Positions 215 through 49,669 of a stretch of 64,000 nucleotides of DNA are shown here, piece by piece. Origin of the DNA: Enterobacteria phage vB_EcoM_IME339. Below the pieces are notes generated by a model. That model saw only the letters and a program-made list of their open reading frames with translations, was not told where the DNA came from and made no database searches. The stretch lies in the sequence record MH051915, one strand, 5' to 3'. A program made the position numbers and the translations under genes. The first letter of the stretch is position 1. Each line of letters begins with the position of its first letter.

Positions 215-2392
215 ATGATTATCACTACTGAAAAAGAAACAATTCTTGGTAATGGTGCTAAATCAAAAGCATTTAGCATCGCAGCAAATCCTAAAGTATT
301 TAAAATTCTGTCATCTGATTTGTATACAAACAAGATTCGCGCAGTAGTCCGTGAATTGATTACCAACATGATTGATGCCCATGCTCTTAATGGAAATCCT
401 GAAAAATTTATCATTCAAGTTCCAGGACGATTAGATCCGCGATTTGTTTGCCGAGATTTTGGTCCAGGTATGAGCGATTTTGATATTCAGGGTGATGATA
501 ATTCTCCTGGGTTGTATAATTCATACTTTAGTTCATCTAAGGCTGAATCTAATGATTTCATTGGTGGATTTGGTTTAGGTTCTAAATCTCCGTTTAGTTA
601 TACTGATACATTTAGTATTACTTCATATCATAAAGGTGAAATTCGTGGTTATGTAGCTTACATGGATGGTGATGGTCCACAGATTAAACCTACATTCGTA
701 AAAGAAATGGGTCCAAACGATAAAACTGGTATTGAAATCGTAGTTCCAGTTGAAGAAAAAGACTTTAGAAACTTTGCTTATGAAGTTTCTTATATCATGC
801 GACCATTCAAAGATTTGGCTATCATTAATGGTCTTGACCGCGAAATTGATTATTTTCCGGATTTTGATGACTATTACGGTGTAAATCCAGAAAGATACTG
901 GCCAGATCGTGGTGGATTGTATGCTATCTATGGCGGTATTGTTTATCCTATTGATGGTGTTATTAGAGACCGTAACTGGTTAAGCATTCGCAATGAAGTG
1001 AATTACATTAAGTTTCCAATGGGTTCACTTGATATTGCTCCATCGCGCGAGGCTCTTTCACTAGATGATCGTACTCGTAAAAATATTATTGAGCGTGTTA
1101 AAGAGCTCAGTGAGCAGGCGTTTAATGAAGATGTAAAACGATTTAAAGAATCTACATCTCCTCGTCATACATACCGTGAATTGATGAAGATGGGATATTC
1201 TGCTCGAGATTATATGATTAGCAATTCAGTCAAATTTACGACTAAAAATCTGTCATATAAAAAGATGCAGAGCATGTTTGAACCTGACAGTAAGTTATGC
1301 AATGCAGGGGTTGTGTATGAAGTAAATCTTGACCCTCGACTGAAACGCATTAAGCAAAGCCATGAAACTTCAGCCGTTGCGTCAAGCTATCGCCTGTTTG
1401 GTATTAATACGACAAAAATTAATATTGTTATTGATAATACTAAAAATCGTGTTAATATTGTCCGTGGATTAGCACGCGCGTTAGATGATAGTGAATTTAA
1501 TAACACCTTAAATATTCATCACAATGAGCGTCTTCTGTTTATTAATCCGGAAGTAGAATCGCAGATTGATTTGCTTCCTGATATTATGGCAATGTTTGAA
1601 AGTGATGAAGTTAACATTCATTATTTGTCAGAAATCGAAGCTTTAGTTAAAAGTTATATTCCAAAGGTAGTAAAAAGTGCAGCTCCTCGTCCTAAAGCTG
1701 CTACTGCATTTAAGTTTGAAATTAAAGACGGGCGCTGGGAAAAAGAGGAACTGTTTACGCTCACATCAGAAGCAGATGAAATTACTGGCTATGTAGCATA
1801 CATGCATCGTTCTGATATTTTCTCTATGGATGGTACTACATCTCTTTGTAATCCGTCTACGAGTATTTTGATTCGTATGGCTAATCTTATTGGCATTAAT
1901 GAATTTTATGTTATTCGTCCACTTTTGCAGAAAAAGGTAAAAGAACTTGGTCAGTGCCAATGTATTTTTGAAACTCTGCGTGATTTATATGTAGATGCTT
2001 TTGACGATGTAGATTATGATAAGTATGTAGGTTATTCAAGTTCAGCTCAGCGATATATTGATAAAATTATTAAGTATCCTGAACTTAATTTTATGATGAA
2101 ATATTTCAGTACAGATGAAGTTTCCGAAGAATATACTCGCCTTGGTAATATGGTTAGTTCATTGCGGGGTGTATATTTCAATGGTGGAAAAGATACCATC
2201 GGTCATGACATCTGGACCGTAACTAATCTTTTTGATGAATTATCACGTAATGCTTTAAAAAACAGTGATAAAATGGTTGCTGAGTTTACCAAGAAATTCC
2301 GTATTGTTTCCGACTTCATCGGTTATCGCAATTCTTTAAGTGATGATGAAGTTTCCCAAATCGCTAAAACTATGAAGGCCCTTGCGGCCTAA
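215..2392 (+). CDS. rIIA: rIIA protein (membrane-associated, GHKL-like ATPase region)
   Basis: 725 aa, same length as T4 rIIA; lies immediately upstream of rIIB. Confidence 0.9.
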
Positions 2393-2403
2393 TAAGGAAA
2401 ATT

Positions 2404-3342
2404 ATGTACAATATTAAATGCCTGACCAAAAACGAACAAGCTGAAATTGTCAAACTGTATTCAAGTGGTAATTACACCCAACAGGAATTGGCTGATTGGC
2501 AAGGTGTATCGGTGGACACAATCCGTCGTGTTTTGAAAAATGCTGAAGAAGCTGAGCGCTCCAAAGTTACCATTAGCGGTGACATTACAGTTACAGTTAA
2601 GAGCGATGCAGCTATTGCTCCAGTTGCTAAATCTGACATTATTTGGAATGCATCTAAAAAATTCATTTCAATTACTGTTGACGGTGTAACTTATAACGCA
2701 ACTCCTAATACTCATTCAAACTTCCAAGAAATTCTTAATCTGCTTGTTGCAGATAAATTGGAAGAAGCGGCGCAAAAAATTAACGTTCGTCGCGCTGTTG
2801 AAAAATATATTTCCGGTGATGTTCGAATTGAAGGTGGAAGCTTGTTCTATCAAAATATTGAATTGCGGTCTGGTTTAGTTGATCGTATTCTCGATTCGAT
2901 GGAAAAAGGTGAAAACTTTGAATTTTATTTTCCGTTCCTGGAAAATCTGTTGGAAAACCCAAGCCAAAAAGCGGTATCTCGACTCTTTGATTTCTTGGTA
3001 GCAAACGATATTGAAATTACAGAAGACGGTTACTTCTATGCTTGGAAAGTAGTTCGCAGCAATTACTTTGACTGCCATTCAAATACTTTTGATAACAGTC
3101 CTGGTAAAGTAGTTAAAATGCCACGTACTCGTGTGAATGACGATGATACACAAACTTGTTCTCGTGGTCTGCATGTGTGTTCTAAATCTTATATTCGTCA
3201 CTTTGGCAGTTCAACCAGCCGAGTTGTAAAAGTTAAAGTACATCCTCGCGATGTAGTATCAATTCCGATTGATTACAACGACGCTAAAATGCGTACCTGC
3301 CAATACGAAGTAGTTGAAGACGTTACTGAACAATTTAAATAA
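2404..3342 (+). CDS. rIIB: rIIB protein
   Basis: 312 aa, same length as T4 rIIB; adjacent to rIIA. Confidence 0.9.
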   Translation: MYNIKCLTKNEQAEIVKLYSSGNYTQQELADWQGVSVDTIRRVLKNAEEAERSKVTISGDITVTVKSDAAIAPVAKSDIIWNASKKFISITVDGVTYNATPNTHSNFQEILNLLVADKLEEAAQKINVRRAVEKYISGDVRIEGGSLFYQNIELRSGLVDRILDSMEKGENFEFYFPFLENLLENPSQKAVSRLFDFLVANDIEITEDGYFYAWKVVRSNYFDCHSNTFDNSPGKVVKMPRTRVNDDDTQTCSRGLHVCSKSYIRHFGSSTSRVVKVKVHPRDVVSIPIDYNDAKMRTCQYEVVEDVTEQFK

Positions 3343-6557: not shown

Positions 6558-7886
6558 ATGCAACTGAATAATCGCGATTTAAAAAGTATCATTGATAATG
6601 AAGCACTGGCTTATGCCATGTACACGGTTGAAAATCGTGCTATTCCAAATATGATTGATGGATTTAAGCCAGTTCAACGATTTGTTATTGCTCGAGCTCT
6701 TGATTTGGCGCGAGGAAATAAAGATAAGTTTCACAAACTTGCTTCTATTGCAGGTGGTGTAGCTGACCTTGGATATCATCATGGTGAAAACTCTGCGCAA
6801 GACGCGGGGGCTTTGATGGCTAACACGTGGAATAATAACTTTCCTTTGTTAGATGGTCAAGGAAACTTTGGTTCTCGTACCGTTCAAAAAGCAGCAGCAA
6901 GTCGTTATATTTTTGCTCGTGTAAGTAAAAATTTCTATAGTGTATATAAAGATACTGAATATGCTCCGGTACATCAAGATAAAGAACACATTCCGCCTGC
7001 TTTCTATTTGCCTATTATTCCTACTGTTCTTCTTAATGGTGTTTCCGGTATTGCAACTGGTTATGCAACTTACATTCTTCCTCATAGTGTTTCTTCTGTC
7101 AAGAAAGCTGTACTGCAAGCTCTTCAAGGAAAGAAAGTAACTAAACCGAAGGTAGAATTCCCAGAATTTCGCGGTGAAGTCGTTGAAATTGACGGTCAAT
7201 ATGAAATTCGTGGAACGTACAAGTTTACTTCACGAACTCAAATGAATATCACTGAGATTCCGTATAAGTATGATCGTGAAACTTATGTGAGTAAAATCTT
7301 AGACCCGCTTGAAGATAAAGGCTTCATTACATGGGATGATGCTTGCGGTGAGCATGGTTTTGGCTTCAAAGTTAAATTCCGCAAAGAATATTCTTTGAGC
7401 GATAACGAAGAAGAACGCCATGCAAAAATCATGAAAGACTTCGGGTTGATTGAGCGTCGTTCTCAGAATATTACAGTCATCAACGAGAAAGGAAAGCTGC
7501 AAGTTTACGATAACGTAGTTGATTTAATCAAAGACTTCGTTGAAGTTCGTAAAACTTATGTCCAAAAACGAATTGATAACAAAATTAAAGAAACTGAATC
7601 AGCATTTCGTTTAGCCTTTGCCAAGGCGCATTTCATTAAGAAAGTAATTTCAGGTGAAATTGTTGTGCAGGGTAAAACTCGTAAAGAACTGACCGAAGAA
7701 CTTTCTAAAATTGAGATGTATTCTTCTTATGTTGATAAACTAGTCGGAATGAATATTTTTCATATGACTTCCGACGAAGCAAAGAAACTTGCTGAAGAAG
7801 CTAAAGCTAAGAAAGAAGAAAACGAATATTGGAAAACTACTGATGTAGTTACAGAATACACTAAAGATTTAGAGGAAATCAAATGA
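6558..7886 (+). CDS. 52: DNA topoisomerase II medium subunit (GyrA-like)
   Basis: 442 aa, same length as T4 gp52; synteny. Confidence 0.9.
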   Translation: MQLNNRDLKSIIDNEALAYAMYTVENRAIPNMIDGFKPVQRFVIARALDLARGNKDKFHKLASIAGGVADLGYHHGENSAQDAGALMANTWNNNFPLLDGQGNFGSRTVQKAAASRYIFARVSKNFYSVYKDTEYAPVHQDKEHIPPAFYLPIIPTVLLNGVSGIATGYATYILPHSVSSVKKAVLQALQGKKVTKPKVEFPEFRGEVVEIDGQYEIRGTYKFTSRTQMNITEIPYKYDRETYVSKILDPLEDKGFITWDDACGEHGFGFKVKFRKEYSLSDNEEERHAKIMKDFGLIERRSQNITVINEKGKLQVYDNVVDLIKDFVEVRKTYVQKRIDNKIKETESAFRLAFAKAHFIKKVISGEIVVQGKTRKELTEELSKIEMYSSYVDKLVGMNIFHMTSDEAKKLAEEAKAKKEENEYWKTTDVVTEYTKDLEEIK

Positions 7887-10887: not shown

Positions 10888-11544
10888 TTATTTAGCCCTT
10901 CCTAATATTCTGGCCGCCTGAGCACATATTGATTCAAGGCGGTCATTACTTATATGATCATTTCTATACCAGTACATGGTTATTGTTCCAGCATAGATAT
11001 TATCCAAATTGAAATATGGACAACTGTACATGTAGTTTATTTCGGGAGTAGGCTTTTTAGTCGGTAAAAAAGCAAATTTTGAATTGGAATAATAATGACG
11101 TCCATTTAAATGGACTGTATATTCATCCATAGTTTTATCAACAGGATATCCTCCAAGTGATTTTTCACTTATTGTTGAAGGTAATTTTCCTTCATATGCT
11201 ATAATATCAACAAAATAGTTTAAGTTTTTAGGGCGGAAAGAATACACCGCACTAAAGTCTGCCTCAGATGATATGTGAACTATCTGGAGTTGTTCCAGGG
11301 CGACAGATTCAAAGCGTGCATTTCTTTCCTTTTCAATAATTTCACTGTATGTTTCATACTTTGATTGCTTATAGTACTCAAAGAAACTATCTCCCCTATA
11401 CCAAACAATCGCCATCATAAATAAAAGAATTACGACAGCTACTCGGGAAGCAAGAACATTCCCGGTAGCGTTATCTTTGAACAAGCGATCTAGAACACCC
11501 AACAGAATATCAGAGGGCGAAAATGATATTCTAGGTGCTGCCAT
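10888..11544 (-). CDS. t: holin
   Basis: 218 aa, same length as T4 holin T; N-terminal TM segment; downstream of gene 38. Confidence 0.85.
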   Translation of the reverse strand: MAAPRISFSPSDILLGVLDRLFKDNATGNVLASRVAVVILLFMMAIVWYRGDSFFEYYKQSKYETYSEIIEKERNARFESVALEQLQIVHISSEADFSAVYSFRPKNLNYFVDIIAYEGKLPSTISEKSLGGYPVDKTMDEYTVHLNGRHYYSNSKFAFLPTKKPTPEINYMYSCPYFNLDNIYAGTITMYWYRNDHISNDRLESICAQAARILGRAK

Positions 11545-11574
11545 AGACCCTCCTTTTAAGGATATTTATTCAAA

Positions 11575-12360
11575 TTATACTCTTGCACCATATATTGTAC
11601 CAACTTTAGTCCAAGTTGGAGCATTACCAGTAACAGCTTTACCTGCTGCACCGCCGTTATATTCTGATCCTTGACCGCGAATATTACATTTACCTCCTGC
11701 GGCACCGGCATCACCACCATTCCCGCCATTATAGATACCGTTGACAGACCCTTTACCGGGAGCAGAAATAGTACCAGCAGTAGCACCTTGTTCCATATTA
11801 GCAGACCCACCAGCAGCGCCAAATGGACGACCGCCGCCACCGCCAAAGGTTAATCTCATTTGTGAAAAAGGAGAATAATACCCGCCGCCACCGCCGCCAC
11901 CGCCGCCTGCGATAACACCATTGTTGTTAATACGTAATCTAGTTCCAATTCCGTTATTTATTGCAGTTCCTCCTGCTCCACCGGCAGAGTTATTTCCGCC
12001 ATTCCCGCCACGGCCCCAAACATGCACGCCTGAATTGATATTAAGTGTCACATATGCATTAGTTAATGAGCTAGGAAAATCTAAGCATGGAACACCAGTA
12101 GATTGAGAAACAATATTTCCTGTAATAGTAATAACAACAGGCGTGGACCCTTGTGCTTTTATCCAGTTTATTAATGTATCTTTATTATAAGAATTACTAG
12201 CACCAATGCTATAATATACTTCTTTAGATTGTCCGGCCATTGAGCTCATCCAACCGGGAACTGAAACACGGACTGCTCTCATTGCAGCATCCATCCAACG
12301 TTGTCCAGTTTCATTCACGGCAGATTCACCAATCCAGCCAGGAACACCTACAATTGCCAT
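11575..12360 (-). CDS. 38: gp38 receptor-binding adhesin, T2-type with glycine-rich motifs
   Basis: 261 aa; N-terminus MAIVGVPGWIGESAVNETGQRWM as in T2-family gp38; several poly-Gly blocks; T4 gp38 is a 183-aa chaperone instead. Confidence 0.8.
   Translation of the reverse strand: MAIVGVPGWIGESAVNETGQRWMDAAMRAVRVSVPGWMSSMAGQSKEVYYSIGASNSYNKDTLINWIKAQGSTPVVITITGNIVSQSTGVPCLDFPSSLTNAYVTLNINSGVHVWGRGGNGGNNSAGGAGGTAINNGIGTRLRINNNGVIAGGGGGGGGGYYSPFSQMRLTFGGGGGRPFGAAGGSANMEQGATAGTISAPGKGSVNGIYNGGNGGDAGAAGGKCNIRGQGSEYNGGAAGKAVTGNAPTWTKVGTIYGARV
11829..11907 (-). repeat. (GGN)n low-complexity repeat encoding poly-glycine motifs inside gene 38
   Basis: ccgccgccaccgcc runs on the plus strand; translated GGGGGGGGG on the minus strand. 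Confidence 0.7.
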
Positions 12361-12390
12361 TAAAAATCCTTAGAGGGCCGAAGCCCTCTT

Positions 12391-15300
12391 TTACATAAGT
12401 TTAGATTCAAGTTCTTTTACACGAGAAGAAAGCGTTTTCACAGCTTCAACCAGAAGAGCAATCTGGGCTTGAGAAGAAACAGTGAGTATTTTATTACCCT
12501 TTCTATCTTCTGTTTCACGGACAGCTTCTGGTAAAACGTCTTGTAACGTTTGAGCCACAATACCCGCTTCAGTTTCAATTGCCTCTCCACCGATGTATTC
12601 AGCTTTATCGTAAATGACACCGTTAAGTTTTTCAACTTTATCAAGTGCATTTTCGATAGGTTTGAAGTTGGATTTTAAACGAATATCAGAACGAATATAA
12701 ACGTTTGGAGCATTTATATTTTTGTATGAGTACAAATCACCATTTTGGAAACGGAATACTTGTACGCTGTTCGCATATATGTCTAATAATCCATCGCCAT
12801 TTTGCTTAATACCAGTATCGTTATCACCAAATGTTATACTGTTTCCACCGAGACCATTTGATGTATTGACACCAAAGGCACCTGTTTGTGGTAGCAGTAC
12901 TTTACCAGGGCAGTCTAGAGTACCGTCCATTGTAAAGCGCCATCTTGCTTGCTGGCCATTAGCATTGTCGCCACGTATACGAATAATACCATCACGCCAT
13001 CCAGCGGTGGTACCAGAGCCGACCCATCCAAATTCAAAGGTTTGGCGATAACCCGCCGAGCCGTAGTTACTGTATGCACCTACAATAGGATAATAACTGC
13101 CTGAATTAGATAAATCCCCATGGTCTGCCATAAAGGTGATTTTAGATTTCATTGTATCCGAGTTATCAGCCCAACCAGACGCTCCTCGCCAACCTGCTAC
13201 TACACGAGACGAGATATTACCTAAACTAGTATTACCACTAGTAACATTCAAGCCACCAGTAACATTCAAGCCACCGCCGGTAATATTTAGACCATGGTTC
13301 ATACCAACGCGACCATCAGCCATATTAATGGAGAAAGGTCTTAAATTATTCCAATCACCACTAGCCGCATTGGGTTTTTCTGACGTATTCTTGTCTGTAG
13401 CTAAAATATAAAAACTTCCACCATCATTTCGAATGATAGCAGCATTCGAATCAATATCATTACCTCTGGATTTAATACGTAAACCTTTTTGGTTATTGGT
13501 AACAAATTCACCACGAGTAACAACATCAGATTCGCCAGCAGCAAACATTCCATCGATGTTATTCAATAATCTTACAGTTTTACCTACTACATGACCTTCT
13601 GGAAGTGTTTCAACAATAGGTTGAATTCCTCCGTTAAGACCGACTACGGTTACTGTACTATTACTGGTGCATGAATATTCGATGACTAAAGCATTTGAAT
13701 ATCCTCCCACATAAACATAAACGTCATATGTATCATTGCTCGTGTTAACTGTGGCAATTTGTGAAAATGCTTCAGAAGTTCTGTTCCATAATGTAGCGTT
13801 AAGTCCTTTAGGATTATTATTTCCAGTTCTAAGAATTATTTCTGCGACAGAAGCTTGCCCATAACTTTTAAAATTAAATCCTGAACCGCCATATATTTTA
13901 AATGCTACTGTTCCAGTAGATTGAGGAATATTAACTGTCGCAAACTTATACCATCCAGTTGTGGCTCCGCCTGACCAACCACCAACATCGACTTTATTGT
14001 TTAACGTTGTATTTAAGTTGGCAAAATTACCAGTACCGCCTGTGATGTTGCCATCTGTACCAATTCGAATATTATTAATTTTAAGAGGCTTAGTAATATC
14101 GACAGTATCAGAGTTTAATGCAATACCATGTGAATAGGTGTAGTTATGCATACGAACGACGTTTCCGCCATCGCCAATACCTAAATACCATTTTGTAACA
14201 TCCGCTTTACGTCCTTGGATAAAGTTAGACGCTGCTTGAGAAGAAGCATTCAAAACAATACCGTCGGAATCCATGTTAACACGAAGTCTAACATCGGTTT
14301 GAACAAATTTTGATACGTTATCAATAGTAAGCAAATTTTTTCCAGCTTGTGTATGATTGCCCATCATAACACTGCCATTTGCGAGATTGATGGTAAATGG
14401 GCGTAAATTACTTATTCCACCACTTTCGCCAGCATCTTTAGGAGTTGGGATAATATAAAAGTTAGTTTCCGAACGACGGAAAATAGCACCGTATTCAGCA
14501 TTCCAAATTCTTAATGCATCAGCAGTTCCGCCAAATTTGGCTTGGCCGTTTATAGACATTCCGTTATTAGCAACTAAACTTGATTCAGTAACAATAGAAC
14601 CGGAAGCAGTAATACCACCAGAAGTTAATAAACCACCATTAACTCGGAGTTGAATAGGCCCGACAGTCGAACCAGGTGCAGGAGCTACGCGTTGAGAATA
14701 AAAATGGTAACCTTGCCCATCTGATACTTCAAAGACTGTTTCACGATTACGATCACCAGATGCGTTAAATGAATTTCCCCATGCTTTAACTGTAACAGGG
14801 CTTTTGTTTTGACCTGCGCGAGTACCACTGTTCCAGTATATACTTCTAGTACCATCTGCAGCCGTCGGGGCGTTAAACTGGAATCCCTGATTATCAGGTC
14901 CATCAATAATTATGCCTTTATTAAGACGAAAAGCTAATGTAGAATTAATACTTCCAGTTGCGGCATTAAAGCTAATACTTTCACCGCCGGTGGTTAACTT
15001 CAATATACCTGGGTTAACGTCTACACCTTCCTGAGTATTAATATTAGTTTTGCCTTTACCGCGGAAATAATGACTCATTTTACCGCCAGCATTGTACCCA
15101 ATATGCGTCTGGCCGTCTCCAGCATTGTTATTATCAGCTTGCGTTTGAACAGACAAGAAAGCGGCATTAGTGCCAGGCATAATCCATGTGGTGCCTTGGT
15201 CCTCGGAACGACCAAATATACCTTTACGAGTACTACGGAAACTGTCAGGAGTAATAGAAGCAACAGAATATCCACCGCCAACTAGATCAAATACACCAGT

Positions 15301-40011: not shown

Positions 40012-40260
40012 ATGATTAAACAATTACAACACGCTCTTGAACTGCAACGAAACGCATGGAATAATGGTCACGAAAACTATGGCGCATCTATTGATGTTGA
40101 AGCCGAAGCTCTTGAAATCCTGCGTTATTTCAAACATCTGAATCCTGCTCAAACTGCATTAGCTGCTGAGCTTCAGGAAAAAGATGAACTTAAGTATGCT
40201 AAGCCTCTGGCTTCTGCTGCACGAAAAGCAGTTCGTCACTTTGTGGTAACACTGAAGTAA
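40012..40260 (+). CDS. rIII: rIII lysis-inhibition accessory protein
   Basis: 82 aa, same length as T4 RIII; synteny. Confidence 0.8.
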   Translation: MIKQLQHALELQRNAWNNGHENYGASIDVEAEALEILRYFKHLNPAQTALAAELQEKDELKYAKPLASAARKAVRHFVVTLK

Positions 40261-40454
40261 TTTATTGGAGAGTCACTGCCTTAGTGTGAAGTTAAAACGA
40301 GGAGCCGTCGAACTTTGTTTTACGGTGTACCTCTTGAATGTTGACGAGGTTTATGGTTATCCTGTCGGTAAATATTCAAAACCTAAGTACCCCTTGAGGG
40401 CTTTCGCAGGCAATGCCAATAAGTCCTGCATTTTCATTTAAAAGAGAATTTATA

Positions 40455-40631
40455 ATGGCAAAACAAGCTAAAGCAAAGAAAGCAGTTGAAAAGAAAGTTG
40501 GTGATTCTAAACGCGCTGGTTACAAGCGTGGGTCGAACTCTCGTATCAATCAAACTGTTGAGAAGATCATGCGCCGAGCACGTGCGGTTCTTCGAGATGA
40601 TGCTTCTCGTTTTGGTAAGCAGAAAGCATAA
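40455..40631 (+). CDS. small basic hypothetical protein (58 aa)
   Basis: MAKQAKAKKAVEKKVGDSKRAGYKRGSNSR...; internal start of table ORF 40413..40631. Confidence 0.45.
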   Translation: MAKQAKAKKAVEKKVGDSKRAGYKRGSNSRINQTVEKIMRRARAVLRDDASRFGKQKA

Positions 40632-40635
40632 GTTG

Positions 40636-40660
40636 AGGACTCCTTCGGGAGTCCTTTTTT
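40636..40660 (+). terminator. rho-independent terminator
   Basis: aggactccttcgggagtcct then tttttt. Confidence 0.65.
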
Positions 40661-40741
40661 ATTTTCCAAAGATTGCATAAAGTTGTTTACAGTATAGTTC
40701 CTTTGTGATAGTATTATCTTACACAAACAAAGGAGAATAAA

Positions 40742-41074
40742 ATGAAAACGATTAATCTGAACGCTACAGTTAAAACTAAATGCTTCAATGGTAAATATGA
40801 TGAAACTATGTGGTTCTTAATGGCAGTTGAAGGTGATATTATTGAAGTAGAAACAACAGAAGGTATGGGAACAGATTTCACCTTTACAATTCAAGTTCAT
40901 AATTTCTTTACTGGTTGGATTTATGAATTGAATACAGTAATCGTTGGAAAAATTGAACAAAATGAATTGGGTGAATGGTATTATGTTACAGCCCGCCAAC
41001 GTGCCGAACGCTTAATTGAGAAGATGAAAAAAGTTGGTAAACTTGACATGCAACATTGGAAAGTAGTAAAATAA
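40742..41074 (+). CDS. hypothetical protein (110 aa)
   Basis: ORF downstream of an early promoter-like block at 40670..40720. Confidence 0.5.
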   Translation: MKTINLNATVKTKCFNGKYDETMWFLMAVEGDIIEVETTEGMGTDFTFTIQVHNFFTGWIYELNTVIVGKIEQNELGEWYYVTARQRAERLIEKMKKVGKLDMQHWKVVK

Positions 41075-41142
41075 TTGTTTACTTTGGTACAGGATATGAT
41101 ATTATATACCTGTACCGCAATTAAACATCTCGGAGAATAAAA

Positions 41143-41508
41143 ATGAACTACATCAACTTTGAACGTAAATATGTTTCTAATGGTATTGTAGGTTCTATTG
41201 ATACTATCTGCCTTTGGAAACATCAAAATGGATCAGTATGCGAAATTGAACAGTATATGACTCCTAACTACGTTTATATGCGATTTGAAAATGGCATCAC
41301 GGTTTCAATCACGAAAGAAGGTTCTTCTTTTAAAATCGCATTAGATGATGATTTCCGTCAACGCGATTTAGGTACTCATCCTTGCTGGAATGGCGTCAAT
41401 CGTAAGCTTCTGGTTAAAACTTGGATTCGTCATATTCTGAGTAACAGAGCTAAACCTGAGCATCTTGAAGCGATCTTTGATGTAGTTCTTAACGAATTTG
41501 ATATTTAA
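41143..41508 (+). CDS. hypothetical protein (121 aa)
   Basis: ORF downstream of an early promoter-like block at 41075..41130. Confidence 0.5.
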   Translation: MNYINFERKYVSNGIVGSIDTICLWKHQNGSVCEIEQYMTPNYVYMRFENGITVSITKEGSSFKIALDDDFRQRDLGTHPCWNGVNRKLLVKTWIRHILSNRAKPEHLEAIFDVVLNEFDI

Positions 41509-41519
41509 AATAAAATGAG

Positions 41520-41546
41520 GGGCTTCGGCCCCTTACTGAGGAAAAT
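41520..41546 (+). promoter_or_regulatory. hairpin plus SD cassette, copy 2 of the 27-nt repeat
   Basis: gggcttcggccccttactgaggaaaat identical to 3343..3369. Confidence 0.5.
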
Positions 41547-41549
41547 ACT

Positions 41550-41837
41550 ATGTTTATGACTACTTATTTTGATACCCGCAAAAATTTCTGTGAAGTGGTT
41601 TTCTCTAAGGCACCTAAAGACCTTCCTGCTCATTTGCAACCTACCAGTGAATCAATTAAAAACTACGTTAATGTAGTCTGCCCTTTAGAGTTCCGTACTG
41701 TAAATGGGCGTGATACTCTAGCTATTACTAAACTCAATCGTGAAATTGACATTGACCCTTCAATTGCGCGCGAAATTAATATTTCTGATATTGGCGGCGG
41801 TAATGTTAAATCGCACGGTTTTCAGATGAGGTTTTAA
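41550..41837 (+). CDS. hypothetical protein (95 aa)
   Basis: ORF following the hairpin/SD cassette. Confidence 0.5.
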   Translation: MFMTTYFDTRKNFCEVVFSKAPKDLPAHLQPTSESIKNYVNVVCPLEFRTVNGRDTLAITKLNREIDIDPSIAREINISDIGGGNVKSHGFQMRF

Positions 41838-42034
41838 TGAAATTCTTTTTAGGTCAAACTGTTGAATTAAAGGGAGTTGGTATACCTGGATTAATTTCTA
41901 AGGTTCTACCTCCATTTAAATGGAGTGGTATTCAAATAAAAGAGGCTTATATTGTTTCCTGGGTAGATGGAAATGAAGACCTTCGTATGGGTGATGAATT
42001 ATCTCCTATCTATGGATTAAAGGAATTAATATGA
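41837..42034 (+). CDS. hypothetical protein (65 aa)
   Basis: ORF with TAATG overlap. Confidence 0.45.
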   Translation: MKFFLGQTVELKGVGIPGLISKVLPPFKWSGIQIKEAYIVSWVDGNEDLRMGDELSPIYGLKELI

Positions 42035-42237
42035 ATATAATTAATAAGATTTTTGGAATTCAGTACATTAAGGTCACATATAAAGTAACGTATAAAGGTC
42101 CGTATACCGATGAACATGAAGAGCCACAAGTTCAGTCTATTATATTAGAAAAGGACCCTAACTGGCCAGTTGAATTTCGTCTTCCTTGCTATGGTCATTG
42201 GGCTGATGTTGAAATTATAAGTATTGAAAATGTCTGA
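42031..42237 (+). CDS. hypothetical protein (68 aa)
   Basis: ORF with ATGA overlap. Confidence 0.45.
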   Translation: MNIINKIFGIQYIKVTYKVTYKGPYTDEHEEPQVQSIILEKDPNWPVEFRLPCYGHWADVEIISIENV

Positions 42238-42688
42238 GTTAGAGATTAGAAGCAATTTTAGATGGCCATCATGTGCATTAAGTAATTTCGCCCAATGGCC
42301 TTTTGTTATGGATGGTATCCAATTTGGAGGTCTCGAAGGATTCCTCCAAGGATGCAAGGTGAAAAATGTTGAACAACAGCGTCGTATATTTGGGTTATCC
42401 GGGCTTGCCGCCCAACAAGCTGGAAGGTCTTATGCAAGAGCTCAGGACCGTGGCACGTTGTTCTGGCTTGGAACTCCGTTTTCAAGATATTCCGAAGCAT
42501 GGAAAGAATTATACACAAATGCATATTTTGAAGCAGCGATCCAAAACAAGGGATTTCGCAATGCATTACAAGCCTCGAAAGGAAAAGTTTTGAAGCATAG
42601 CATGGCTAGTGGTCTAACAAAAGATGATACAATACTAACCGAAGCTGAATTTATTGATGTGTTAAACCTATTAAGAGACTCTCTATGA
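42224..42688 (+). CDS. NADAR/YbiA-like (DUF1768) protein, candidate ADP-ribose-processing hydrolase
   Basis: N-terminal block CALSNFAQWPFVMDGIQFGGLEGFLQGCKV resembles the YbiA/NADAR signature; about 154 aa, typical family size. Confidence 0.5.
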   Translation: MKMSELEIRSNFRWPSCALSNFAQWPFVMDGIQFGGLEGFLQGCKVKNVEQQRRIFGLSGLAAQQAGRSYARAQDRGTLFWLGTPFSRYSEAWKELYTNAYFEAAIQNKGFRNALQASKGKVLKHSMASGLTKDDTILTEAEFIDVLNLLRDSL

Positions 42689-43548
42689 AGCCAACTATTT
42701 TGACTGATATTGATGGAGTATGTTTAAGCTGGCAATCAGGCCTTCCTTATTTTGCTCAGAAATATAATCTTCCATTAGAACATATTTTAAAAATGATCCA
42801 AGATGAGAAATTTATTTCTCCAGGTAAACTCTTTAATTGTGACGAAGAACTTGGCGTCAAGTTAATTGAAAAATACAATCGTTCAGATTTTATTCGTTAT
42901 TTGTCTCCGTATAAAGATGCCCTGTGTGTAATTAACAAATTAAAAGAAGATTATAATTTTGTAGCTGTTACAGCATTGGGTGATTCTATTGACGCTCTGT
43001 TGAATCGTCAATTTAATTTGAATGCTCTTTTTCCTGGTGCCTTCTCAGAAGTAATGATGTGTGGTCATGATTCTTCAAAAGAAGAGTTATTCAAAAAGGC
43101 AAAAGAGAAATATAACGTAATTTGTTATATTGACGATCTCGCTCACCACTGCGACCATGCGAGTGAAATATTAAATGTTCCGGTTTATTGGATGGCTCGA
43201 GGAGAGCGTGATAAAATTCCAAAAACTGCGCAGCGAGTTTATACATGGAATGATGTAGAAAATAAGCTTTTTTCACCAAAGGAAAATAAAGAAAGTTTTG
43301 ATAGTGAAAAAGCTATAAAAGATGTAATTGAGAAGATGGTTAAAAACGATTCTTTTCGTTGGAACACTACCTGGAGAACTCCTGGATTTAATCCGTATAA
43401 TCCATATTATACACATCCATATAATCCATATTATACACACCCGTATCATATGAATCCATTCCATACGTGGAGTTATACCAAGCCTGGCGATGCAGGGTAT
43501 TTTAATAGATTTACTAGTGGTGATAATATTTTCCAAGGAGCATTCTAA
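42685..43548 (+). CDS. HAD-superfamily hydrolase-like protein (nucleotidase-like N-terminus) with Tyr/Pro/His-rich repeat tail
   Basis: HAD motif I LTDIDGV near the N-terminus; C-terminus NPYNPYYTHPYNPYYTHPYHMNPFHTW. Confidence 0.5.
   Translation: MKPTILTDIDGVCLSWQSGLPYFAQKYNLPLEHILKMIQDEKFISPGKLFNCDEELGVKLIEKYNRSDFIRYLSPYKDALCVINKLKEDYNFVAVTALGDSIDALLNRQFNLNALFPGAFSEVMMCGHDSSKEELFKKAKEKYNVICYIDDLAHHCDHASEILNVPVYWMARGERDKIPKTAQRVYTWNDVENKLFSPKENKESFDSEKAIKDVIEKMVKNDSFRWNTTWRTPGFNPYNPYYTHPYNPYYTHPYHMNPFHTWSYTKPGDAGYFNRFTSGDNIFQGAF
43393..43440 (+). repeat. 24-bp tandem repeat (2 copies, near-identical) inside the HAD-like ORF
   Basis: ccgtataatccatattatacacat / ccatataatccatattatacacac. Confidence 0.7.
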
Positions 43549-43817
43549 TGTTTGTCGTTCACACTATTTATGAAAATGAAGGTAATACTACGCGTGATTA
43601 CGGTCACGTAAATCAATTTTTTAGATGCAATCCAGAGTTCCGAGCTCAAAAGGATGAACGAATTTTTAAAAAATGTGTAGAGCAAGGTTTCATTTATATC
43701 AAGCACTGGATGCAAGGAAATAAAGTTAGAACTACATATCATAGGTCTTTAACTGAGCTTAATGATGAATTGATTTATAATAGAGCTGTAAATCAAACTC
43801 TGAAGGATGAACAATGA
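43548..43817 (+). CDS. hypothetical protein (89 aa)
   Basis: ORF with TAATG overlap. Confidence 0.5.
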   Translation: MFVVHTIYENEGNTTRDYGHVNQFFRCNPEFRAQKDERIFKKCVEQGFIYIKHWMQGNKVRTTYHRSLTELNDELIYNRAVNQTLKDEQ

Positions 43818-45277
43818 TTCTTAAAATTCTGAATGAAATAGCATCTATTGGATCAACTAAGCAGAAGCAAGCAATTCTTGAAAAGAATAAAGATAATGAA
43901 TTGCTTAAACGAGTATATCGTCTGACTTATTCTCGTGGGTTACAGTATTATATCAAGAAATGGCCTAAACCTGGTATTGCTACCCAGAGTTTTGGAATGC
44001 TGACTATTACCGATATGCTTGACTTCATTGAATTCACGTTAGCTACTCGGAAATTGACTGGAAATGCTGCAATTGAGGAATTAACTGGATATATCACTGA
44101 TGGTAAAAAGGATGATGTTGAAGTTTTGCGTCGAGTTATGATGCGAGACCTTGAATGTGGTGCTTCAGTATCTATTGCAAACAAAGTTTGGCCAGGTTTA
44201 ATTCCTGAACAACCTCAAATGCTAGCAAGTTCTTATGATGAAAAAGGCATTAATAAGAATATCAAGTTTCCAGCTTTTGCACAGCTAAAAGCAGATGGAG
44301 CTCGGTGTTTTGCTGAAGTTCGAGGTGATGAATTAGATGATGTTCGTCTTTTATCACGAGCTGGTAATGAATATCTAGGATTAGATCTTCTTAAGGAAGA
44401 GTTAATCAAAATGACTGCTGAAGCCCGCCAGATTCATCCAGAAGGTGTGTTAATTGATGGCGAATTGGTATACCATGAGCAAGTTAAAAAGGAACCAGAA
44501 GGCCTAGATTTTCTTTTTGATGCTTATCCTGAAATTAGTAAAGCTAAAGAATTCGCCGAAGTAGCGGAATCTCGTACTGCTTCTAATGGAATCGCCAATA
44601 AATCCTTAAAAGGAACCATTTCTGAAAAAGAAGCTCAATGCATGAAGTTTCAGGTCTGGGATTATGTCCCGTTGGTAGAAATATACGGTCTTCCGGCATT
44701 TCGTTTAAAATATGATGTACGTTTTTCTAAACTAGAACAAATGACATCAGGATATGATAAAGTAATTTTAATTGAAAACCAAGTAGTAAATAACCTAGAT
44801 GAAGCTAAGGTAATTTATAAAAAGTATATTGACCAAGGTCTCGAAGGTATTATTCTCAAAAATACCGATGGATTGTGGGAAAATGCTCGTTCAAAAAATC
44901 TCTATAAATTTAAAGAAGTAATTGATGTTGATTTAAAAATTGTAGGAATTTATCCTCACCGTAAAGACCCTACTAAAGCGGGTGGGTTTATTCTTGAATC
45001 AGAGTGTGGAAAAATTAAAGTAAATGCAGGTTCAGGCTTAAAAGATAAAGCCGGTGTAAAATCGCATGAACTTGACCGTACTCGCATTATGGAAAACCAA
45101 AATTATTATATTGGAAAAATTCTAGAGTGCGAATGCAACGGTTGGTTAAAATCTGATGGCCGCACTGATTACGTTAAATTATTTCTTCCGATTGCGATTC
45201 GTTTGCGTGAAGATAAAACTAAAGCTAATACATTCGAAGATGTATTTGGTGATTTTCATGAGGTAACTGGTCTATGA
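43814..45277 (+). CDS. 30: ATP-dependent DNA ligase
   Basis: 487 aa, same length as T4 DNA ligase; N-terminus MILKILNEIASIGSTKQKQAILEKNKDNELLKRVYRLTYSRGLQYYIKKWPKPG matches T4 ligase; catalytic KADG motif. Confidence 0.95.
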   Translation: MILKILNEIASIGSTKQKQAILEKNKDNELLKRVYRLTYSRGLQYYIKKWPKPGIATQSFGMLTITDMLDFIEFTLATRKLTGNAAIEELTGYITDGKKDDVEVLRRVMMRDLECGASVSIANKVWPGLIPEQPQMLASSYDEKGINKNIKFPAFAQLKADGARCFAEVRGDELDDVRLLSRAGNEYLGLDLLKEELIKMTAEARQIHPEGVLIDGELVYHEQVKKEPEGLDFLFDAYPEISKAKEFAEVAESRTASNGIANKSLKGTISEKEAQCMKFQVWDYVPLVEIYGLPAFRLKYDVRFSKLEQMTSGYDKVILIENQVVNNLDEAKVIYKKYIDQGLEGIILKNTDGLWENARSKNLYKFKEVIDVDLKIVGIYPHRKDPTKAGGFILESECGKIKVNAGSGLKDKAGVKSHELDRTRIMENQNYYIGKILECECNGWLKSDGRTDYVKLFLPIAIRLREDKTKANTFEDVFGDFHEVTGL

Positions 45278-45462
45278 AAGCTTACTTAGAAACAATTGTC
45301 GTTGCTCAAAAAGAAGGTGGAGATGTTTCTACTTCTGTATCACAAATTATGATTGAATTTATAGATGCATATGCTTATAATAAATTCACAGAAACATTTG
45401 ATGCCTATGAAAAAGGTCCAAAGTTTGAAATATACCGTACTCTCTTACCAATAGATTATTAA
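45274..45462 (+). CDS. hypothetical protein (62 aa)
   Basis: ORF with ATGA overlap to ligase. Confidence 0.45.
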   Translation: MKAYLETIVVAQKEGGDVSTSVSQIMIEFIDAYAYNKFTETFDAYEKGPKFEIYRTLLPIDY

Positions 45463-45485
45463 AGGCCTTCGGGCCTTTAATTTTA
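45461..45485 (+). terminator. terminator-like hairpin
   Basis: aaaggccttcgggccttt followed by A/T-rich tract. Confidence 0.5.
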
Positions 45486-45514
45486 TAAATAGAATAAACA
45501 CTAGAGAGGATATG

Positions 45515-47608
45515 ATGGAACTCATTACAGAATTATTTGACGAAGATACTACTCTTCCGATTACAAACTTAAATCCAAAGAAGAAAATACCACAAATTTT
45601 TTCAGTTCATGTTGATGACGCAATTGAACAACCAGGCTTTCGTTTATGTACCTATACATCTGGAGGTGATACTAACCGTGATCTAAAGATGGGCGATAAA
45701 ATGATGCATATTGTTCCTTTTACATTAACTGCTAAAGGTTCAATTGCTAAATTAAAAGGTCTCGGTCCAAGCCCAATTAATTATATCAATTCAGTTTTTA
45801 CTGTTGCGATGCAGACGATGCGTCAGTATAAAATTGATGCCTGTATGCTCCGTATTCTTAAGTCTAAAACTGCTGGTCAAGCTCGTCAAATTCAACTTAT
45901 TGCTGATAGACTTATCCGTAGTCGCTCAGGCGGCAGATACGTCCTTCTTAAGGAACTTTGGGATTACGATAAAAAGTATGCATATATTCTTATACATCGC
46001 AAAAATGTATCACTAGAAGACATTCCAGGAGTTCCGGAAATTAGTACCGAGCTCTTTACTAAAGTTGAATCGAAGGTCGGTGATGTTTATATCAATAAAG
46101 ATACTGGAGCTCAAGTAACTAAAAATGAGGCAATTGCTGCATCTATTGCGCAAGAAAATGATAAACGTTCTGACCAAGCTGTAATCGTTAAAGTTAAAAT
46201 TTCCCGTAGAGCAATTGCACAAAGTCAATCATTAGAATCTTCTAGATTTGAAAGTGAATTATTCCAGAAGTATGAATCTACCGCAGCTAATTTCAATAAA
46301 CCTGCTACCGCTCCTTTAATTCCCGAAGCGGAAGAAATGAAACTTGGAATTAATTCAATAGCTTCTAAAACTAAGGCAGCAAAAATCATTGCCGAAGGAA
46401 CTGCAGATGAACTTCACTATGATTATAAATTCTTTTCAAAAAGTGAGGTTAATGAAGTTTCTGAAAAAATTAAAGATGTAATTCTTAATGCGATTAAAAA
46501 TGAACCAACTACTTCAATAAAATGTTTAGAGAAATACGCAGCAGCTGTTAATCAATTCTTTGAAGAATATAAAGATAATTGGCTTGATAAACATAATAAA
46601 ACTCGTAAAGGGCAGCCAGATGAAGTCTGGGAAGAAATAACTAAAAATTCCTGGAATGCAGCAAAAACTAAATTCCTTAAAAGAATGATTTATAGCTTTT
46701 CTGGAATTGGTGCAGGTCCAATGATTGATATTACTATTGCCCGTGATGGTTCTAAATATACTCCATCACAAAAGCGCGGCATTAGAGAGTATTGTGGTTC
46801 AGGATATACTGACATCAATAATCTTCTTTTGGGTCGTTACAATCCAGAACGATATGATGTAATGAGTGAAAAAGAAATTGAATCTGCTATAAATAACTTA
46901 GATTCAGCTTTTGAAAATGGCGACCGTATACCAGAAGGCATTACAGTTTATCGTGCTCAAAGCATGACTGCTCCTATATACGAAGCATTAGTTAAAAATA
47001 AAGTATTCTATTTCAGAAATTTTGTATCTACTTCTTTAACTCCTATCATTTTTGGACGTTTTGGAATTACGCATGCTGGTATTGGTCTTTTAGAACCAGA
47101 AGCTCGTAATGAATTGACAGTTGATAAAAATGAAGAAGGAATAACTATTAATCCAAACGAAATAAGAGCGTATAAAGAAAATCCTGAATACGTTAAAGTT
47201 CAAATAGGATGGGCAATTGATGGAGCTCATAAAGTTAATGTTGTATATCCAGGAAGTCTCGGAATAGCAACAGAAGCTGAAGTTATTCTACCACGCGGAT
47301 TGATGGTCAAAGTTAATAAAATAACTGATGCTTCTAATAACGATGGAACAACATCTAATAATACAAAACTCATTCAAGCTGAAGTTATGACTACGGAAGA
47401 ACTCACCGAATCGGTAATTTATGACGGTGACCGTCTAATGGAAACTGGTGAAGTAGTTGCAATGACAGGTGATATTGAAATAGAAGACAGAGTTGACTTT
47501 GCATCATTTGTTTCATCAAATGTTAAACAAAAAGTAGAATCATCTCTTGGAATTATTGCGTCTTGCATAGATATTACAAACATGCCTTACAAGTTCGTTC
47601 AAGGATAA
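45515..47608 (+). CDS. alt: Alt ADP-ribosyltransferase (packaged, modifies host RNA polymerase)
   Basis: About 697 aa from MELITELFDEDTTLPITNLNPKKKIPQIF (T4 Alt N-terminus as I recall it); C-terminal R / STS / ExE ADP-ribosyltransferase motifs (YRAQ, FVSTSL, EAEVILPRG). Confidence 0.85.
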   Translation: MELITELFDEDTTLPITNLNPKKKIPQIFSVHVDDAIEQPGFRLCTYTSGGDTNRDLKMGDKMMHIVPFTLTAKGSIAKLKGLGPSPINYINSVFTVAMQTMRQYKIDACMLRILKSKTAGQARQIQLIADRLIRSRSGGRYVLLKELWDYDKKYAYILIHRKNVSLEDIPGVPEISTELFTKVESKVGDVYINKDTGAQVTKNEAIAASIAQENDKRSDQAVIVKVKISRRAIAQSQSLESSRFESELFQKYESTAANFNKPATAPLIPEAEEMKLGINSIASKTKAAKIIAEGTADELHYDYKFFSKSEVNEVSEKIKDVILNAIKNEPTTSIKCLEKYAAAVNQFFEEYKDNWLDKHNKTRKGQPDEVWEEITKNSWNAAKTKFLKRMIYSFSGIGAGPMIDITIARDGSKYTPSQKRGIREYCGSGYTDINNLLLGRYNPERYDVMSEKEIESAINNLDSAFENGDRIPEGITVYRAQSMTAPIYEALVKNKVFYFRNFVSTSLTPIIFGRFGITHAGIGLLEPEARNELTVDKNEEGITINPNEIRAYKENPEYVKVQIGWAIDGAHKVNVVYPGSLGIATEAEVILPRGLMVKVNKITDASNNDGTTSNNTKLIQAEVMTTEELTESVIYDGDRLMETGEVVAMTGDIEIEDRVDFASFVSSNVKQKVESSLGIIASCIDITNMPYKFVQG

Positions 47609-47611
47609 ATC

Positions 47612-49669
47612 ATGGAACTTATTACAGAATTATTTGACGGCGCTTCGGCGCCGGTTGTTAACTTAAATCCTAAGCATAAAATACCTCAAATTTTTGCTAT
47701 TCAAGCTGGTGAAGAAAGCGTGCTTCCTGGATTTAGATTTTGTACATACACCTCTGGCGGTGATACAAATAAAAACGTTAAGCCAGGCGATAAAATGATG
47801 CATATCGTAATGATAGGTGTTAATGAGAAACTATCATTAGTTAAACTTAAAAACTTGGGTGGAAATCCAATTGGTGTCATTAATGCGGTTTTTGATACTG
47901 CTCTTCAAACAATGAAACAGTATAAAATTGATGCATGCTTATTCCGCGTACTAAAAAGTAAAACAAATGGCGCTGCTCGTCAAATGCAAGTTATTGCTGA
48001 CCGTTTAGTACGTACTAAAGGAGCAGGTCGATATGTTCTTTTAAAGGAAATCTGGGATTATGATAAAAAGTATGCATATATTATGGTTTACCGTAAAAAT
48101 GCCAATTTAGAAGACATTCCAGGTGTACCTCCTATTTCAACTGAGTTATTCACAAAAGTTGAATCAAAGGTTGGTGATGTTTATGTAGATGTTAAAACAG
48201 GTAATGCTGTTCCTAAAGCTGTTGCTGTTGCTGCTTCTATTGCTTTAGAAAATGATAAGCGCACGGATCAAGCTGTTATTCAGAAAACTAAAATTAGTCG
48301 TCGATTAGCAGCACAAGCTCAATATTCTACTGTCGATGCTTCACTACAGGGTGATAGCTTCGCTGCCAAGAAATATCAAGAGTTTGAATCTAAAGTTCCG
48401 GTATATAAAGCAGAAGGACCAATGAACTCTGGCGTTATTCAGATTGGTTCAAACTTCGGCAAAGGAGCTATCGGTGGTATGAGAAGTGCTTCTCGTTTTA
48501 AATCTAACGATTATGAACTAGAAAGCTTCCGAAATCATATTGCATTGGCCCATGCACGTTTACGTGATCCGTCTATCAGGCTGCAGAGCGATATAACACA
48601 TCAAGGTTCTCAAGAATATTTAAAGAATAAAGAATTCTTTGATTATAAAACCGATAAAATTTTGAGCGATCTCGCTGACATTAATATTTCTAATAGCTTT
48701 GATGTTATTAAGAAAATTATCAATGATTTAGTTAAAGGTTCTAAAGCCACGCCAGATGAAAAGGTAGCTATTATTCAATTTGTCATGAATGGCATTTATA
48801 AATTGATTAATGAATCTGCTGCTCAGGCATATGAATACGCAAGCACCGAAGTAACTCCAAAAGGACTGACTCAGGCTGAGTCTAATGTAATTGAAGATTA
48901 TTGTGCAGATTCATATGTTGAAATGAACTCGTTCCTCTTGGGTAAACCAGATTCTACCCGTGAAGAATACATGGAACGAGCTATTAAACACATCGAGACG
49001 CTGGATTCTGCATTCGCCAAAGGATCAGTTCTTCCTCCAGGAACTACGCTTTATCGTGGACAAGAAGTTACTTTTAAAACTTTACGCCATAATATTGAAA
49101 ATAAAATGTTCTATTTCAAGAACTTCGTATCAACATCGCTTAAACCAAATATCTTCGGTGAGCATGGTAAAAACTATATGGCTCTAGATGATTCCGGCGC
49201 AGTATTTTCTGGTGAAGGAGAAGGTTCTGTTGATGCTGAAGATTTAATGCATATGGGTAGTCATTCTGCATATGCTAATGAAGATGCTGAAACTAGCGTA
49301 GGTATGGTAATTAAAGGGGCTGAGCGAATCAAAGTTATCGTTCCAGGTCATTTATCAGGATTTCCATCAGAAGCTGAAGTTATTCTACCGCGTGGAATTT
49401 TGTTGAAGATTAATAAAGTAAGCACGTATATGATGAAAGAAACTGCTTATAACAAGTATCTAATCGAAGGCACAATCGTTCCTCCTTCTGAACAATTAGA
49501 AGAATCGGTATATGATGGCGATCATCTAATGGAAACTGGCGAAGTTCGTCCAATGGCTGGGTTTAATCAATTCCTTGTAGAAGAATCAAAAGAAGAGGAA
49601 AACGAAGTTTCTCAAATCTTGGCTTCTTTGGTTAACATCAACGGAATGTCTAAAAAGTTCAAGATGTAG
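47612..49669 (+). CDS. Alt-like ADP-ribosyltransferase paralogue (tandem)
   Basis: 685 aa; N-terminus MELITELFDGASAPVVNLNPKHKIPQIF and C-terminal YRGQ, FVSTSL, EAEVILPRG shared with alt; central region diverged. Confidence 0.8.
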   Translation: MELITELFDGASAPVVNLNPKHKIPQIFAIQAGEESVLPGFRFCTYTSGGDTNKNVKPGDKMMHIVMIGVNEKLSLVKLKNLGGNPIGVINAVFDTALQTMKQYKIDACLFRVLKSKTNGAARQMQVIADRLVRTKGAGRYVLLKEIWDYDKKYAYIMVYRKNANLEDIPGVPPISTELFTKVESKVGDVYVDVKTGNAVPKAVAVAASIALENDKRTDQAVIQKTKISRRLAAQAQYSTVDASLQGDSFAAKKYQEFESKVPVYKAEGPMNSGVIQIGSNFGKGAIGGMRSASRFKSNDYELESFRNHIALAHARLRDPSIRLQSDITHQGSQEYLKNKEFFDYKTDKILSDLADINISNSFDVIKKIINDLVKGSKATPDEKVAIIQFVMNGIYKLINESAAQAYEYASTEVTPKGLTQAESNVIEDYCADSYVEMNSFLLGKPDSTREEYMERAIKHIETLDSAFAKGSVLPPGTTLYRGQEVTFKTLRHNIENKMFYFKNFVSTSLKPNIFGEHGKNYMALDDSGAVFSGEGEGSVDAEDLMHMGSHSAYANEDAETSVGMVIKGAERIKVIVPGHLSGFPSEAEVILPRGILLKINKVSTYMMKETAYNKYLIEGTIVPPSEQLEESVYDGDHLMETGEVRPMAGFNQFLVEESKEEENEVSQILASLVNINGMSKKFKM

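Follow-up and report, generated by a model that had tools for sequence, protein, structure and literature searches.

The closest described relative of the protein analyzed here is gp30.3 of phage T4, which was named AdfN, for anti-DarT factor NADAR, by Johannesman et al. (Nat Commun 2025, PMC11825919). T4 gp30.3 is a guanine-specific DNA ADP-ribosylglycohydrolase, necessary as well as sufficient for DarTG1 resistance. In that work, chimeras with RB69 traced the DarTG1 resistance of T2 and T4 to the 3′ portion of gene 30.3. Without adfN, neither T4 nor T2 could form plaques on DarTG1 hosts, and RB69 was rescued by ectopic adfN, a rescue that was impaired by the substitutions E36A and K43A and by an RB69-like truncation (PMC11825919). 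The purified protein takes ADP-ribose off DarT1-modified DNA, shows no interaction with DarT1 in a two-hybrid assay, and is without effect on DarTG2 (PMC11825919). In vitro, T4 gp30.3 hydrolyzes guanosine-ADP-ribose but not thymidine-ADP-ribose, and uninfected cells are not protected by it from DarT1 toxicity (Toxins 2024, PMC11125620). AdfN-T4 is fully active only during T-even infection, with non-T-even phages helped weakly, which implies a phage cofactor (PMC11825919). Independently, a transposon-sequencing preprint (HIDEN-SEQ) found that phages with insertions in 30.3/adfN are selectively lost when the host carries DarTG1 (bioRxiv 10.1101/2025.11.20.689424). AdfN-T4-like NADARs span the T4 superfamily (PMC11825919), and T4 gp30.3 was, as the later papers state, already among the phage NADARs of earlier bioinformatic work (PMC11825919; PMC11543638).

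Three further kinds of NADAR serve as points of comparison. The DarT1-associated BC4488 NADARs, or DarG1 proteins, of G. lovleyi (Protein Data Bank [PDB] entry 8bat) and E. coli C7 hydrolyze guanine-ADP-ribose on DNA, a chemistry that they have in common with AdfN (PMC11543638; PMC11825919). AdfN-Bas32 and AdfN-Bas60, from T5-like phages and Vequintavirinae, are also phage encoded and guanine specific and also counter DarTG1; they differ from AdfN-T4 in belonging to other, independently acquired NADAR clades and in being active without a phage cofactor, even in uninfected cells (PMC11825919). E. coli YbiA likewise hydrolyzes guanine-ADP-ribose in vitro (PMC11125620), but it is a housekeeping enzyme from a LexA-controlled operon, without an anti-defense role, and its family consists of riboflavin-intermediate N-glycosidases. 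Within the active site, a glutamate and a lysine touch ADP-ribose in the NADAR of P. nicotianae (PnNADAR; E43 and K50), and the equivalent residues E88 and K95 are required in the E. coli C7 NADAR (PMC11543638). A further position, occupied by Glu in YbiA, Asp in BC4488, and His in the phage proteins, separates the NADAR subfamilies (PMC11543638; PMC11825919).

The window, a stretch of 64,000 nucleotides from Enterobacteria phage vB_EcoM_IME339 (sequence record MH051915), contains an open reading frame on the plus strand that the initial annotation placed at positions 42224 to 42688, with 154 amino acids counted from a TTG codon, and read as a NADAR/YbiA-like protein. The frame is genuine and its end at 42688 holds, but its start has to be moved by 6 nucleotides. 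TTG 42224, in frame with and 6 nucleotides upstream of ATG 42230, is no more than the earliest codon at which translation could begin. Given that ATG 42230 overlaps the stop codon of the upstream gene (ATGTCTGA), that a gene beginning there measures 459 nucleotides, equal in size to the annotated T4 gene 30.3, and that this ATG is the annotated start in the 100%-identical gene of Shigella phage vb_GEC_SH_GT, the true start is almost certainly ATG 42230. The gene then runs from 42230 to 42688, stop codon included, and encodes 152 amino acids. The string on which the initial annotation had relied, CALSNFAQWPFVMDGIQFGGLEGFLQGCKV, corresponds to residues 17 to 46 of the 154-residue reading and 15 to 44 of the 152-residue reading, the latter being the numbering used below. 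An alternate-frame ORF of 75 amino acids lies inside the gene (42366 to 42593, plus strand) and corresponds to the annotated 30.3′ of T4, a product of internal translation. The window, T4, and TH55 all keep this frame open and share its ATG, whereas RB69 has a stop codon within it and a 58%-identical homologue shows no recognizable trace of it; the last two observations argue against a conserved overlapping 30.3′ protein. A scan of positions 40200 to 45600 for sigma-70-like sites found 22, against 20.5 ± 4.7 in shuffled sequences, and thus no excess.

The encoded protein is identical to T4 gp30.3 (NP_049816) at 148 of 152 positions (97%). It matches the Pfam family Phage_30_3 (PF08010, "Bacteriophage protein GP30.3") over profile positions 1 to 138 of 138 with an E value of 5.8e-69 and a score of 230.7 bits, the gathering cutoff being 36, and it also matches PHROG 652. 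The genes follow one another as in T4, read on the opposite strand, in the order cd, 31, rIII, 30.9 through 30.4, 30.3, 30.2, 30.1, DNA ligase (30), alt.1, and alt, so that 30.3 is flanked, as in T4, by 30.4 on one side and by 30.2, 30.1, and the ligase gene on the other. Judged by sequence and gene order, the window comes from a Tequatrovirus genome, and this ORF is its counterpart, by orthology, of T4 gene 30.3 (adfN).

The surrounding region (41500 to 44000) was matched by 696 phage records in a megablast search, the best of them a Tequatrovirus with 99.2% identity, and the hosts of these phages are almost all Escherichia, Shigella, or Yersinia. At the protein level, a search of 5.8 billion proteins returned 102 homologues (best E value, 2.3e-86), and tblastn found the protein in 1,509 of 50,697 phage records, 1,502 of them at a coverage of at least 80%. 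The host genera of the tblastn matches include Escherichia, Klebsiella, Shigella, Aeromonas, Acinetobacter, and Vibrio, a spread that agrees with the published T4-superfamily range of AdfN-T4-like NADARs. Conservation of this kind marks the ORF as a gene far beyond chance.

Whether gp30.3 is a NADAR depends on the level at which the family is drawn. YbiA belongs to the Pfam NADAR family PF08719, whereas the window protein falls short of it when searched directly: the initial annotation had proposed to give up the assignment if no significant NADAR HMM hit were found, and the window protein gave nothing against PF08719 at an E value of ≤1. That demand was too strict, because Pfam files gp30.3 in the separate family PF08010. 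No NCBIfam model matched the window protein, and a single-sequence search of PDB sequences with it returned nothing at an E value of ≤10. We aligned 57 full-length homologues, which are 35 to 97% identical to the window protein. Individually, 22 of these 57 relatives match PF08719 (best E value, 1.5e-7), and the profile built from the family reaches E. coli YbiA (2b3w) among the PDB sequences with an E value of 0.0039, across the motif SNFA...E-x6-K. Comparison of the family alignment with the MG1655 sequence of E. coli YbiA by hhalign gave a probability of 94% and an E value of 1.3e-7 over 91 columns, spanning phage residues 15 to 122 and YbiA residues 27 to 124. A confident AlphaFold2 model computed on the family alignment (mean pLDDT, 93.2; pTM, 0.88) has a YbiA-like alpha+beta fold that begins at residue 3. 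When the PDB was searched with this model using Foldseek, the top match was YbiA (2b3w; E value, 1.3e-4; TM score, 0.67), together with PnNADAR bound to ADP-ribose (8bau; E value, 1.1e-2) and the DarT1-associated NADAR of G. lovleyi (GlNADAR, 8bat; E value, 9.4e-2). Only these three NADAR structures reached a probability of at least 0.97, while all others had E values above 3 and probabilities of at most 0.04. The fold search, the hhalign comparison, the PF08719-matching relatives, and the conserved Glu and Lys residues agree at the superfamily level, and NADAR membership is solid at that level, through a sister Pfam family.

The catalytic core, E36-x6-K43 (EGFLQGCK; codons at 42335 to 42358, plus strand), aligns with the E-HYFQAQ-K of YbiA, E36 and K43 matching the Glu and the Lys in the SEHYFQAQK motif of that protein. 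All 57 homologues retain E36 and H123, and at least 90% of them have K43. The H123 codon (42596 to 42598, plus strand) marks the clade of phage gp30.3 NADARs. In the AlphaFold2 model, this residue directly follows the last strand (residues 120 to 122), and it comes to lie opposite E125 of YbiA once the hhalign alignment, which ends at K122/V124, is extended by one residue. The C-terminal helix (residues 138 to 152, EAEFIDVLNLLRDSL; 42641 to 42685, plus strand) is modeled as helical from residue 138 to 151. Compared with AdfN-T4, the window protein has the same length of 152 residues, the same genomic position, the same catalytic residues, and the same C-terminal helix, and differs in four substitutions (T4 to window: V82T, P89E, D111N, and I125M). 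None of these is at a known catalytic position; E89 and M125 are the consensus residues of the 57-homologue alignment, and M125 lies two positions from H123.

The allele might alternatively be a decayed, inactive 30.3 retained by descent only, like that of RB69, and truncated or fused forms of the gene are indeed known from certain T4-like phages (P0007, P0015, P0017, P0060, and RB69). In RB69, a single-T insertion near nucleotide 411 truncates the inactive allele, whose tblastn match spans only residues 1 to 137; neither the window nor T4 or TH55 has this insertion. Nothing is missing from the window allele, which has its full length, E36, K43, H123, and an intact C-terminal helix, and an allele 100% identical to it is found in another isolate, so that we regard decay as having next to no chance of being the right description. 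The allele is instead predicted to be functional, and we infer that it behaves like the T4 protein.

Among the other genomes, the truncated or fused 30.3 fragments measure 83 to 109 amino acids and were seen in four otherwise complete T4-like genomes of ∼165 kb (P0007, P0015, P0017, and P0060), while the RB69 gene is frameshifted (L015, positions 301 to 714). This pattern suggests recurrent natural loss of adfN in T4-like phages, and phages with a truncated 30.3 would be predicted to be DarTG1 sensitive.

With DarG1, the window protein shares the fold and the Glu/Lys pair. The differences are that the window gene is an orphan with no DarT among its neighbors (30.4 and 30.2), that the protein lacks the N-terminal extension, and that His replaces the last-strand catalytic Asp; the T4 protein is furthermore no substitute for DarG1 in uninfected cells (PMC11825919; PMC11125620). 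With YbiA, it shares the SNFA...E-x6-K motif and, as the best structural match, the fold, at an identity of only ∼19 to 24%. The window protein lacks the conserved last-strand Glu of the YbiA family; it has H123 opposite YbiA E125, with His in all 57 homologues. This replacement bears on the question of whether gp30.3 could process soluble metabolites or signals rather than DNA adducts, as might be thought from the annotation of its best structural match, YbiA, as an N-glycosidase and from the proposal that phage NADARs target mainly soluble ADP-ribose derivatives (Iyer et al. 2022, PMC9503650). Not only is the Glu of the YbiA family replaced by His in the gp30.3 clade, but experiments on the T4 orthologue have directly demonstrated both DNA de-ADP-ribosylation and a phenotype specific to DarTG1, and we consider a soluble substrate highly improbable as the explanation of this gene, although a soluble compound may be a secondary substrate.

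The evidence favors, with high confidence, the reading of the window protein as a NADAR-fold anti-DarTG1 ADP-ribosylglycohydrolase, orthologous to AdfN-T4. The idea of counterdefense against DarTG, put forward in the initial annotation, is thus borne out by what has been shown for the 97%-identical T4 orthologue (PMC11825919; PMC11125620; bioRxiv 10.1101/2025.11.20.689424). The activity is directed specifically at guanine-ADP-ribose on DNA, and DarTG1 is countered but DarTG2 is not.

A different role was hinted at by the neighborhood of the gene, which the initial annotation had placed no more than 3 kb from two ADP-ribosyl writers. This is correct for the first Alt-like gene, which begins at 45512, 2.8 kb downstream, but not for the second, which begins at 47612, 4.9 kb downstream. 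Both genes are on the plus strand, like 30.3, and match PF03496. The first (45512 to 47608) encodes an Alt-like ADP-ribosyltransferase of 698 amino acids that is 70% identical to T4 Alt, and the second (47612 to 49669) encodes one of 685 amino acids. The members of this tandem pair are both intact and share 41% identity. In the second, the N-terminal ∼116 residues are 95 to 98% identical to the small T4 ORFs alt.-1 and alt.-2, which look like the remnant of a second Alt paralogue that is still whole in the window phage.

Colocation of NADAR and ADP-ribosyltransferase genes in T4-like early regions was noted in 2022 (PMC9503650), and it could be read as a module in which the NADAR acts as an eraser for the phage's own writers, be they the neighboring Alt-like enzymes or ModA/ModB. 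Two intact Alt-like transferases on the same strand, 2.8 and 4.9 kb downstream, would suit such a module, as would the need of AdfN-T4 for a T-even factor (PMC11825919). However, four genes (30.2, 30.1, the ligase gene, and alt.1) separate 30.3 from alt, and the linkage does not extend far. We examined the surroundings of the genes for homologues P0041, P0073, P0012, and P0050, and compared both Alt-like proteins, gp30.2, and gp30.1 with all fetched loci using tblastn. A Tevenvirinae-like metagenomic contig, whose gp30.3 is 58% identical, has the same gene order with a single Alt. Around the distant homologues sampled (3 proteins in 9 loci, 38 to 41% identity), which sit in large phage-like contigs, no relative of Alt, gp30.2, or gp30.1 was detected within ±7 to 8 kb at an E value of ≤1e-3. 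Linkage to Alt solely in the Tevenvirinae-like contig points to inherited Tevenvirinae synteny and not to a conserved functional module, so that we set aside the proximity of Alt as evidence for a writer/eraser pair, and with it the functional pairing hinted at earlier. In addition, Alt is annotated as a protein (RNA polymerase) mono-ADP-ribosyltransferase, all published NADAR tests point to guanine-ADP-ribose in DNA (PMC11125620; PMC11825919), and DarTG1 fully explains the adfN deletion phenotype (PMC11825919; bioRxiv 10.1101/2025.11.20.689424). Taken together, a role of gp30.3 as an eraser for phage writers appears very unlikely.

The distant loci also showed other neighbors. In one of them (L012), whose gp30.3 homologue is 41% identical, an ATP-dependent DNA ligase gene (1690 to 3186) precedes that for the NADAR (7001 to 7456) by ∼4 kb; the encoded ligase is 28% identical to the window ligase and is the sole element of the T4 neighborhood found near a distant homologue. 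In another (L003, positions 11115 to 13294; homologue P0041), from jumbo-phage-like contigs of >300 kb, Nudix and Thg1-like genes are located 3 to 5 kb from the NADAR gene, and the Nudix gene fits the reported co-occurrence of NADAR and Nudix in large phages (PMC9503650).

Directly downstream of 30.3, and translationally coupled to it, is gene 30.2 (42685 to 43548, plus strand), which encodes 287 amino acids and whose start overlaps the 30.3 stop codon (ATGA). The N terminus of its product carries a DIDGV motif, which we take, on our own reading and without a domain match, to be of the kind typical of HAD phosphatases. The protein has a weak PHROG match to polynucleotide kinase, is labeled 5′-3′ deoxyribonucleotidase in one record, and gave no match when compared with Pfam and PDB sequences. 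Its C-terminal part includes NPYNPYYTHPY repeats, which a 24-nucleotide tandem repeat (43391 to 43446; 2.3 copies) encodes, and its T4 homologue is 9 amino acids shorter. Gene 30.2 adjoins 30.3 in the sampled Tevenvirinae-like contig and is absent beside the sampled distant homologues. As a conserved partner of 30.3 it was rejected, the gene downstream of the L003 homologue being unlike it and the distant loci containing no match. The T-even factor might nonetheless be encoded in this same block, with 30.2 as the most obvious choice, or the Glu-to-His clade might have a second substrate; we rate such an extension as improbable. Candidate second substrates of the clade may include ADP-ribosylated RNA and adducts of other guanine-targeting ADP-ribosyltransferases.

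For the favored anti-DarTG1 function, the mechanism would be as follows. The DarTG1 toxin-antitoxin system of the host would sense infection, and its DarT1 toxin would ADP-ribosylate guanines of the phage DNA, thereby blocking replication. AdfN would hydrolyze the guanine-ADP-ribose bond by means of the Glu/Lys pair (E36 and K43) and the clade-specific His (H123), and the phage would replicate from the detoxified DNA. The protein would act as an enzyme, without binding DarT1; thymine-ADP-ribose made by DarT2 would not be reversed, and the T4 version requires a T-even factor for full activity. Against this reading stand two observations on AdfN-T4, namely its failure to neutralize DarT1 when cells are uninfected and the weak benefit it brings to non-T-even phages. 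For finding the T-even potentiator of AdfN, the window offers no advantage over T4.

The gene and its anti-DarTG1 role are already known for the T4 protein, from biochemistry in 2024 and genetics in 2025. The practical value of the present analysis is one of annotation, since it provides the name adfN for a gene that most of the deposited records listed call a "hypothetical protein," and from its allele the window phage is predicted to be DarTG1 resistant.
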